Source: Escherichia coli
GTDB taxonomy: Bacteria; Pseudomonadota; Gammaproteobacteria; Enterobacterales; Enterobacteriaceae
Assembly: GCF_003334815.1 (NCBI RefSeq)
Contig: NZ_QOWO01000026.1
Length of the DNA stretch: 62,123 bases
Strand: one strand, 5' to 3'
Below the pieces are notes generated by a model. That model saw only the letters and a list, made by a program, of their open reading frames with translations, did no database searches and was not told where the DNA came from. Below, piece after piece: positions 61,512 through 61,858 of this stretch. The translations under genes were made by a program, and so were the position numbers. Position 1 is the stretch's first letter. Each line of letters opens with the position of its first letter.

Positions 61512-61631
61512 CCAAGCTGTCCACCCCCGGGGAGATTTGCCTTGAGGATGACCATAGTCGATGACCATATTGCTACAGGCCTGTGTGGTCATGTTTTTGA
61601 CTCACGGTTTTCACTACTTGTCAAGGATTTC

Positions 61632-61654
61632 TAATACGACTCACTATAGAGAGA
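61632..61654 (+). promoter_or_regulatory. T7 RNA polymerase-type promoter (exact -17..+1 consensus)
   Basis: TAATACGACTCACTATA G AGAGA: positions -17 to +1 identical to the phage T7 promoter core; predicted +1 G at 61649. Confidence 0.7.
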
Positions 61655-61769
61655 AGGGACACAAAAAGTTTTCTCTCTTTCTCTCTCTTCTAGGACACTT
61701 GCTACTACTACTACAGGCCTGTGTGGTCATGTTTTTGACTCACAGTTTTCACTACTTGTCAAGGATTTC

Positions 61770-61792
61770 TAATGCGACTCACTATAGAGAGA
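61770..61792 (+). promoter_or_regulatory. T7 RNA polymerase-type promoter, second copy (1 mismatch)
   Basis: TAATGCGACTCACTATA G AGAGA; A to G at -13; predicted +1 G at 61787. Confidence 0.6.
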
Positions 61793-61858
61793 AGGGACAC
61801 AAAAAGTTTTCTCTCTTTCTCTCTCTTCTAGGACACTTGCTACTACTACTACAGGTAG

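Follow-up and report, generated by a model that had tools for sequence, protein, structure and literature searches.

Why would the chromosome of Escherichia coli carry promoters for the RNA polymerase (RNAP) of bacteriophage T7? Two such promoters lie in tandem behind an integrase gene near the end of contig NZ_QOWO01000026.1 (assembly GCF_003334815.1), a stretch of 62,123 nucleotides that was analysed as a whole and is called the window here. Based on combined interpretation of promoter sequence, attachment sites, gene content and comparison with related loci, we propose that the two promoters probably serve as control region for a small element integrated at tRNA-Gly(CCC), and that this element belongs to a widespread enterobacterial family dependent on T7-group phages, i.e., a family of phage satellites.

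A T7-type promoter pair behind an integrase gene

The sequence TAATACGACTCACTATAG at 61632-61649 (+ strand) matches positions -17 to +1 of the T7 promoter without a mismatch (18/18), and TAATGCGACTCACTATAG at 61770-61787 on the same strand differs from it by one (17/18 over -17..+1). These are the sole matches with at most three mismatches in the 62 kb, against a chance expectation of 0.03. Measured against the T7 class of promoters, as defined by the 23-bp consensus TAATACGACTCACTATAGGGAGA with conserved positions -17..+1 and a start at G, both sites qualify by sequence as predicted promoters of a single-subunit RNAP. They share one register within a 138-bp tandem repeat and follow the integrase open reading frame (ORF; 59865-61511) on the same strand, with 120 nt between the integrase stop and the first promoter.

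61632..61654, + strand: T7-type promoter 1 (-17..+6), TAATACGACTCACTATAGAGAGA; 19/19 identical to T7 phi1.1A over -16..+3
61770..61792, + strand: T7-type promoter 2, TAATGCGACTCACTATAGAGAGA; A-to-G at -13
61573..61855, + strand: 138-bp tandem repeat holding both promoters (Tandem Repeats Finder: 2.1 copies, 98% matches, score 552)

In T7, phi1.1A is a promoter of the primary origin. The two promoters in the window are real and non-random: the mismatch scan, the repeat analysis and the identity to phi1.1A confirm the tandem pair that had been reported by the initial annotation. That annotation had also let them face a part of the element beyond the window, which is correct as to direction; the window itself reaches no cargo, as the insertion sequence IS10 begins at 62047. 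A 5' stem-loop suggested for the transcript is possible in the window copy, which folds at -11.4 kcal/mol, but has no statistical support there (z = 0.07 versus shuffled sequences). In the relative L004, the equivalent 5' hairpin reaches significance (z = -2.67), and it resembles the hairpin of the T7 phi10 leader (z = -3.15).

A discrete element at tRNA-Gly(CCC)

The segment comprising promoters and leader was found in 92 of 5426 complete E. coli genomes at 88-99% identity, in all cases in the chromosome and at the same site, and its carriers are of human, animal and environmental origin. Annotation was inspected for two genomes, and there the segment has glyU on one side and the ETT2 type III secretion island on the other. 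The 23-nt end of the tRNA gene (TTCGATTCCCTTCGCCCGCTCCA) is repeated exactly 4.15 kb downstream in genome NZ_CP075480 and thereby delimits a discrete element, with ETT2 outside of it. This element contains the integrase gene, two exact T7 promoters, the conserved leader, AT-rich TTAAAG-type repeats, an inverted repeat GGTGATGAT...ATCACC, a degenerate third promoter-like site and, as cargo, genes for a 187-aa KilA-N protein and a 105-aa membrane protein. Promoters and tandem repeat occur in one to three copies in E. coli-type relatives. A variant from IMG/VR (L029-L031) has three tandem perfect T7 promoters with a period of ~120 bp and adjoins a different att core, TTCGATTCCCGCTGCCCGCTCCA. The left end of the element is present in the window.

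59677..59750, + strand: tRNA-Gly(CCC) gene, glyU (ARAGORN)
59728-59750, + strand: attL core, the last 23 nt of tRNA-Gly(CCC), TTCGATTCCCTTCGCCCGCTCCA; the same 23-mer is attR 4.1-6.5 kb downstream in relatives
59865..61511, + strand: tyrosine integrase gene, 548 aa, intact (ORF and translation; PHROG 1 integrase at 1.7e-45)

An integrase together with attachment (att) sites bounding a discrete mobile unit is in accordance with a satellite. The locus had been described as a chromosomal island next to an integrase, of which the mobile, integrase-linked element stands, whereas the large island is replaced by a 4-kb element beside ETT2. In loci L001 and L002, ETT2 with its GH15 gene and degraded type III secretion genes lies past attR (L002 22587 onward).

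An exact T7 promoter would be usual in a vector, and the IS10 at the window end could point to a laboratory strain. Vector contamination or an assembly chimera that brought in laboratory T7 promoters is nevertheless refuted by the natural distribution in genomes and metagenomes, and we give it practically no credence: the segment occupies the same chromosomal site in the 92 E. coli genomes named above, recurs in many metagenomes, and has natural, diverged flanks without vector backbone.

A family across Enterobacterales with phage-matched promoter arrays

Relatives form elements of 4.1-6.5 kb between 23-bp direct repeats of the tRNA-Gly(CCC) 3' end. Hundreds of relatives of the integrase, 82-96% identical, occur in E. 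coli, Klebsiella, Citrobacter, Serratia, Yersinia, Raoultella, Lonsdalea, and Cedecea, and the family extends to Proteus, Pectobacterium and others, with its compact architecture conserved in at least 12 enterobacterial genera. Scanning one genome per species yielded 15 loci in 14 genera, and metagenome look-ups gave more. Directly after the integrase gene (int), nearly every locus has one to four sites N9-CACTATAGGGAGA on the + strand, all facing the cargo. In the 2 kb that follow int (22 loci, 39 kb), the + strand has 40 copies of the core CACTATA[GA]G, versus one copy on both strands of the remaining 810 kb.

The upstream specificity region of these promoters varies with the host. E. coli elements have T7-type promoters, and Klebsiella elements have K11-type, T7-type and AATTAGGTAGCACTATAGGGAGA promoters; AATAACCCCTCACTATAGGGG and ACTTAACTATCACTATAGGGAGA are found in Citrobacter and Buttiauxella, the related ACTAAACTATCACTATAGGGAGA in Enterobacter, and AATTAACCCACACTATAGGGAGA in Proteus and Kluyvera. 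Two of these types (AATTAGGTAGCACTATAGGGAGA and ACTTAACTATCACTATAGGGAGA) were compared against sequenced phages. The former, the third Klebsiella type, recurs 10-13 times per genome in ~370 Klebsiella T7-like phages, and the latter, the Citrobacter type, has 6-8 copies in each Kayfunavirus genome and carries a promoter annotation there. Promoter specificity in the family thus appears to track host-specific T7-like phages (T7, K11-type, Przondovirus, Kayfunavirus). Klebsiella arrays mix up to three specificities (K11-type, T7 and Przondovirus-type cassettes), and their order and composition vary between copies. Since one phage genome uses a single promoter specificity, mixed arrays suggest an element that answers several phages. 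The arrays at L005 12275-12850 and in L035-L050 look as if cassettes had been shuffled.

Gene content, a capsid protein and RAZR

Clustering of ORFs across loci revealed a shared order of att - int - DUF4145 - promoter array - leader - AT-rich repeats - promoter - regulator - small ORF of 60-80 aa - DUF6971 - F1 (330-390 aa) - att, in which the regulator is of the KilA-N, Bro-N, pRha or Ant-like type. E. coli-type members lack DUF6971 and F1, and the window's lineage also lacks the DUF4145 gene, which encodes RAZR (see below). Strains with an intact E. coli-type element include NT1N31 (NZ_CP075480) and UMB1727, the latter with RAZR.

Searches with tblastn of the window and 29 related loci found no homologues of T7 RNAP, gp2.5, primase/helicase (gp4), DNA polymerase (gp5), portal, scaffold, capsid, or terminase. 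The absence of an RNAP gene, which had been noted before from the window only, extends with T7 gp1 as query to all of these loci. The elements thus seem to be devoid of genes for autonomous replication and virion formation, as expected of a satellite, and the RNAP, replication and virion genes that would mark a T7-like prophage were likewise not detected in the window or the 29 loci. Neither the promoter-leader region nor the whole cargo region has a blastn match among 50,697 phage records, from which it follows that the element is not a piece of a known phage.

F1 has no match by sequence in PHROGs, Pfam, NCBIfam, PADLOC or PDB, nor by tblastn against the 50,697 phage records. An AlphaFold2 model from a 25-sequence alignment (predicted local distance difference test score 71, predicted template modelling score 0.67) has Foldseek matches to HK97-fold capsid proteins and encapsulins exclusively (E = 5e-9, probability 1.0, 107 matches at E <= 1e-3), with phi29, HRP29, PhiM1, and Kp9 as top fold matches. 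On the strength of this model, F1 is an HK97-fold capsid protein, encoded by the complete members of the family. The DUF6971 gene lies directly upstream, and its product, with a charged and repetitive C-terminal part, is probably the scaffold. Directly after the capsid gene, a hairpin ACCCTTGGAGGAGACTCTGAGGGT followed by TTTAT (L005 15805-15835; L024 4725-4755) resembles a T7 Tphi-type class I terminator.

Could the elements be what is left of an integrated temperate T7-like prophage that retained its integrase, left-end promoters and early genes and lost the rest by deletion? The T7-like promoters, the TTAAAG repeats and the junction sequences described below would be accounted for, and the closest phage homologues of the integrase are those of integrase-bearing T7-like Pseudomonas phages (31.6% identity, 97% coverage), which hints at descent of the element from temperate T7-like phages. 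Decay of this kind should, however, hardly leave both att sites intact around 4.1-6.5 kb alone and the same compact architecture in at least 12 genera; the arrays join promoters from several phage genera, neither RNAP nor any other core T7 gene is represented even by a fragment, and the capsid protein has no sequence match in the phage records. A prophage remnant is largely refuted by the intact att sites, compact layout, mixed arrays and missing core genes, and we consider it very improbable.

The DUF4145 protein beside the integrase, present in most members, matches the PADLOC model of PD-T7-4 over its full length (E = 2.4e-101). PD-T7-4, since renamed RAZR, is a zinc-finger/HEPN RNase that protects from T3 and T7 upon activation by the portal ring (PMC13017515). 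The earlier suggestion of a phage-triggered defence module is thereby supported for the family, most members of which carry this anti-T7 gene, with the window copy as an exception. On its genomic context, Vassallo et al. (2022) state just that PD-T7-4 'often overlaps an integrase gene' and do not mention T7 promoters (PMC9519451), and the 2026 RAZR paper mentions no integrase, mobile element or satellite (PMC13017515).

It is conceivable that the elements are pure defence cassettes, in which the phage promoters act as infection sensor and a toxic or interfering cargo driven by the phage RNAP aborts infection, and which are never replicated or packaged. RAZR, with its proven abortive-infection activity against T3 and T7, and its remarked overlap with integrase genes would fit, as would the E. 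coli-type cargo behind the promoter, which consists only of KilA-N and the 105-aa membrane protein, and the weak match of KilA-N to PD-T4-2_B (5e-5). Yet the capsid and DUF6971 pair of complete members, and the co-varying copies of terminal-repeat boundaries, origin-like AT-rich repeats and circular assemblies presented in the following, are left unexplained. We therefore regard an exclusive defence function as rather unlikely. Defence and satellite roles are compatible, as exemplified by P4, phage-inducible chromosomal islands (PICI) and PICI-like elements (PLE).

Copies of helper terminal-repeat boundaries

A satellite that is packaged by its helper is expected to carry the helper's packaging signals. 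One candidate lies inside the integrase ORF of the window.

60380..60399, + strand: copy of the T7 concatemer junction, CTCTGTGTCCCTATCTGTTA; 20/20 identical to T7 149-168 (blastn-short)

T7 149-168 spans the right edge of the 160-bp terminal repeat and the class II pause signal ATCTGTT of the concatemer junction. The copy is also present, as a 17-20-mer, in Klebsiella and other members, and the integrase of L024 (28% identity) has it at another position, which argues for a constraint on the DNA rather than the protein level. A second motif, ACCAYAAAAATCTGAG-N4-TATSTAATAG, is likewise conserved, is located ~250 nt before attR and aligns with T7 ACCATAAAAATCTGAGTGACTA/TCTCACAG directly left of the right terminal repeat (18/18 in L024). 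Excision would join the two motifs with T7 order and polarity kept. Both co-vary with the promoter type: left of the terminal repeat, Kayfunavirus CR44b has GACGATGAGTTTTGGACTAAAAGTTTGAGACCA/CATCTCACAG and the three elements with Kayfunavirus-type promoters have GACGATGAGTTTTGACTGAAAAATGTGAGACCC TATCTAATAC at the equivalent place, and the in-integrase motif of these elements reads ...CTATCTGTAT as in CR44b, versus ...CTATCTGTTA in T7. The elements hence appear to carry helper packaging signals. Plasmids with a T7 origin and concatemer junction are packaged by T7, according to the work of Chung and Hinkle (1990) as cited in PMC9860248.

A 12-nt repeat, CCAGAAGTAAAA, follows directly after the junction copy (4.7 copies at 60405-60460) and encodes PEVK repeats in the integrase linker, where the integrase family varies most.

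A hint of free forms comes from a related subtype. L024 is a 6628-bp metagenome contig with a 141-bp k-mer terminal overlap, which results in a circular assembly of 6487 bp, and the same capsid-to-integrase junction is present in L025 and L026 from two further metagenomes. The circular assembly fits an excised circle or a concatemer. L024 has a different integrase (28% identity), yet agrees with the other elements in its T7 boundary motifs and in the layout from promoter, leader and repeats to DUF6971 and capsid. Matches in IMG/VR look like provirus calls from isolate genomes, as judged from contig names alone, and provide no evidence for packaging.

Origin-like DNA and a candidate leader RNA with covariation

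In relatives, AT-rich TTAAAG repeats lie ~250 nt downstream of the promoters, and in the window they are replaced by IS10. Similarity of this region to the T7 phiOL region is local and confined to low-complexity sequence, so that we point to a parallel in architecture and claim no homology. The AT-rich region ends with an inverted repeat GGTGAT-N17-22-ATCACC (L002 20660-20700; L005 12745-12785; L024 1350-1385), and T7 (L028) has a similar inverted repeat (GGTGATTATATTGTATTAGTATCACC) at ~39350-39385, downstream of phiOR.

The leader between promoters and AT-rich region is conserved and retained in the window.

61894..61992, + strand: conserved leader, predicted structured RNA (RNAalifold on 10 sequences)

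Its predicted structure combines a long-range helix (AACTTATCG/CGATAAGT) with an inner hairpin, and compensatory changes are seen in each of them; the helix becomes AACTCATCG/CGATGAGT and AATTTATCG/CGATAAAT in relatives. In the alignment, 98.6% of cells are paired as compared to 35-47% in slid controls, and compensatory changes affect six pairs. A number of G-U pairs do not vary, in line with an RNA on the transcribed strand. No Rfam family matches the leader. These features, from an alignment of about three clades, suggest that the leader is a candidate for a new structured RNA, which the phage polymerase would transcribe.

Proposed life cycle of the elements

It had been proposed from the window that the element is non-autonomous, uses the RNAP of a T7-group phage and is a candidate satellite. 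The att-bounded unit, the absence of core T7 genes and the phage-matched promoters are consistent with this proposal, and origin-like AT-rich DNA, copies of terminal-repeat boundaries and the capsid gene of complete members lend it further support. On balance, we favour an extended hypothesis: enterobacteria may carry unrecognised, widespread satellites of virulent T7-like phages, 4-6.5 kb in size, that would be induced by the helper RNAP via multi-specificity promoter arrays, use T7-type origins, and be packaged by means of terminal-repeat boundary copies, one of them inside the integrase gene. Complete members would form their own small capsids, many members would add RAZR, and the phage polymerase would make the covarying leader RNA.

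Briefly, in the uninfected cell the phage-type promoters would be the sole evident route to transcription of the cargo, with the integrase gene and, if present, RAZR located upstream of them; RAZR was published as functional from its native promoter. Upon infection, the single-subunit RNAP of the phage would recognise the promoter array, as predicted from promoter identity, and transcribe the structured leader and the cargo, i.e., a regulator of the KilA-N, Bro, pRha or Ant type and a small protein that is possibly an excision factor, to which complete members would add DUF6971 as likely scaffold and the HK97-fold capsid protein. Promoters and AT-rich TTAAAG repeats have the architecture of a T7-type origin and might be used as such by the replication proteins of the helper. 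After excision, the left-boundary motif and the junction copy would be contiguous, and the helper terminase could cut and package the element at these motifs; packaged concatemers or units are predicted to end at TCTAATAG... and ...GTGTCCCT. Complete members would build their own small capsids, whereas E. coli-type members would need those of the helper.

Several points weigh against this hypothesis. Support is computational only, with transcription, excision, replication, packaging and transfer all inferred. The trigger of excision is unexplained because int lies upstream of the phage promoters, and the presumed equivalent of the terminal repeat (~0.9 kb) is long for an element of 4-6.5 kb. 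E. coli-type members are without capsid genes, which leaves their packaging route unexplained. The capsid-to-integrase junction would also be yielded by a tandem integrated array; circular or permuted contigs were found for the subtype of L024-L026 only and not for the E. coli type, and 24 other metagenome contigs from a leader-motif scan showed no permuted order or circle, many of them with integrated att flanks. Finally, the window copy, without RAZR and split by IS10, may be inert.

Relation to known systems and significance

Complete members resemble capsid-forming PICIs (cf-PICIs) in that they are integrative elements encoding their own HK97-fold capsid and a likely scaffold. The cf-PICIs take the remaining virion parts from their helper; they measure ~10-15 kb, have their own portal, connector and packaging proteins, and steal nothing but tails, from temperate siphophages. 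In contrast, the family described here has a size of 4-6.5 kb, no homologue of the T7 portal or terminase, an apparent switch-on by the helper RNAP and T7-like podophages as target. The cf-PICI set of capsid, scaffold, portal, connectors and packaging proteins appears incomplete in the family, and the window's lineage is without capsid and scaffold.

PLE of Vibrio cholerae and P4 are infection-responsive satellites as well, interfere with their helpers and carry defence functions, and the helper of PLE is likewise virulent. Both bring replication initiators or primases of their own and remodel the capsids of the helper. Neither of them is known to use promoters of a helper single-subunit RNAP or mimicry of T7-type terminal repeats. 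The temperate T7-like Pseudomonas phages Warsawvirus vB_PsyP_3MF5 and LUZ100 share a homologous integrase (31.6%) and phage-RNAP promoters with the elements and differ from them in having full genomes of 40 kb that include genes for RNAP, replication and the virion. In the plasmids of Chung and Hinkle (1990), a T7 origin (promoter and AT-rich DNA) and the concatemer junction suffice for replication and packaging by T7, and the element has putative natural counterparts of the two; unlike these artificial constructs, it is natural, integrating and widespread, has its own cargo and, in complete members, a capsid gene. RAZR was published as a single-gene system, whereas here it stands beside int in most members.

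A literature search for T7-like phage satellites or natural chromosomal T7-promoter arrays found none, in agreement with the initial annotation, which named no described family of this kind; coverage of subscription journals was partial, and an earlier description is possible. It seems that only RAZR, as an isolated defence gene, has already been described. T7 is among the best-studied phages, and yet no satellite of T7 or its relatives turned up in the literature searched. If true, our hypothesis would add a new logic of satellite induction, the direct use of the helper polymerase, and imply that natural promoter arrays, fitted to the T7-like phages in the surroundings, are maintained by bacteria and by their mobile elements. 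The defence gene RAZR would be given its mobile context, and the family would provide very small natural capsid-encoding elements (6-7 kb), which are relevant to the missing small capsids of tailed phages. The hypothesis would also bear on therapy with T7-like phages (Klebsiella, E. coli) and on T7 expression hosts, as carriers may resist or exploit such phages.

The window copy

By comparison with its relatives, the window copy is a reduced member of the family, since RAZR is missing from it and its closest relatives carry just KilA-N and the small membrane protein. It is also interrupted by IS10 at the window end, and a short repeat follows its promoters.

62047..62123, + strand: outer end of IS10 (IS4-like, ISVsa5 family), 100% identical to the insertion sequence on plasmid R100
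61859..61889, + strand: perfect CTCTAA hexamer repeat, 5.2 copies, between promoter repeat and leader (Tandem Repeats Finder)

The insertion point of IS10, directly after GGGGCTTAACT, lies between the leader and the AT-rich region, where relatives go on with TTAAAG repeats (comparison with L002). The window copy is probably crippled because IS10 interrupts it directly after the leader. None of the complete E. coli genomes in the collection has this IS10 junction, and IS10 is multicopy in 1938 of the 5426 genomes. The length of the CTCTAA hexamer repeat varies among relatives.
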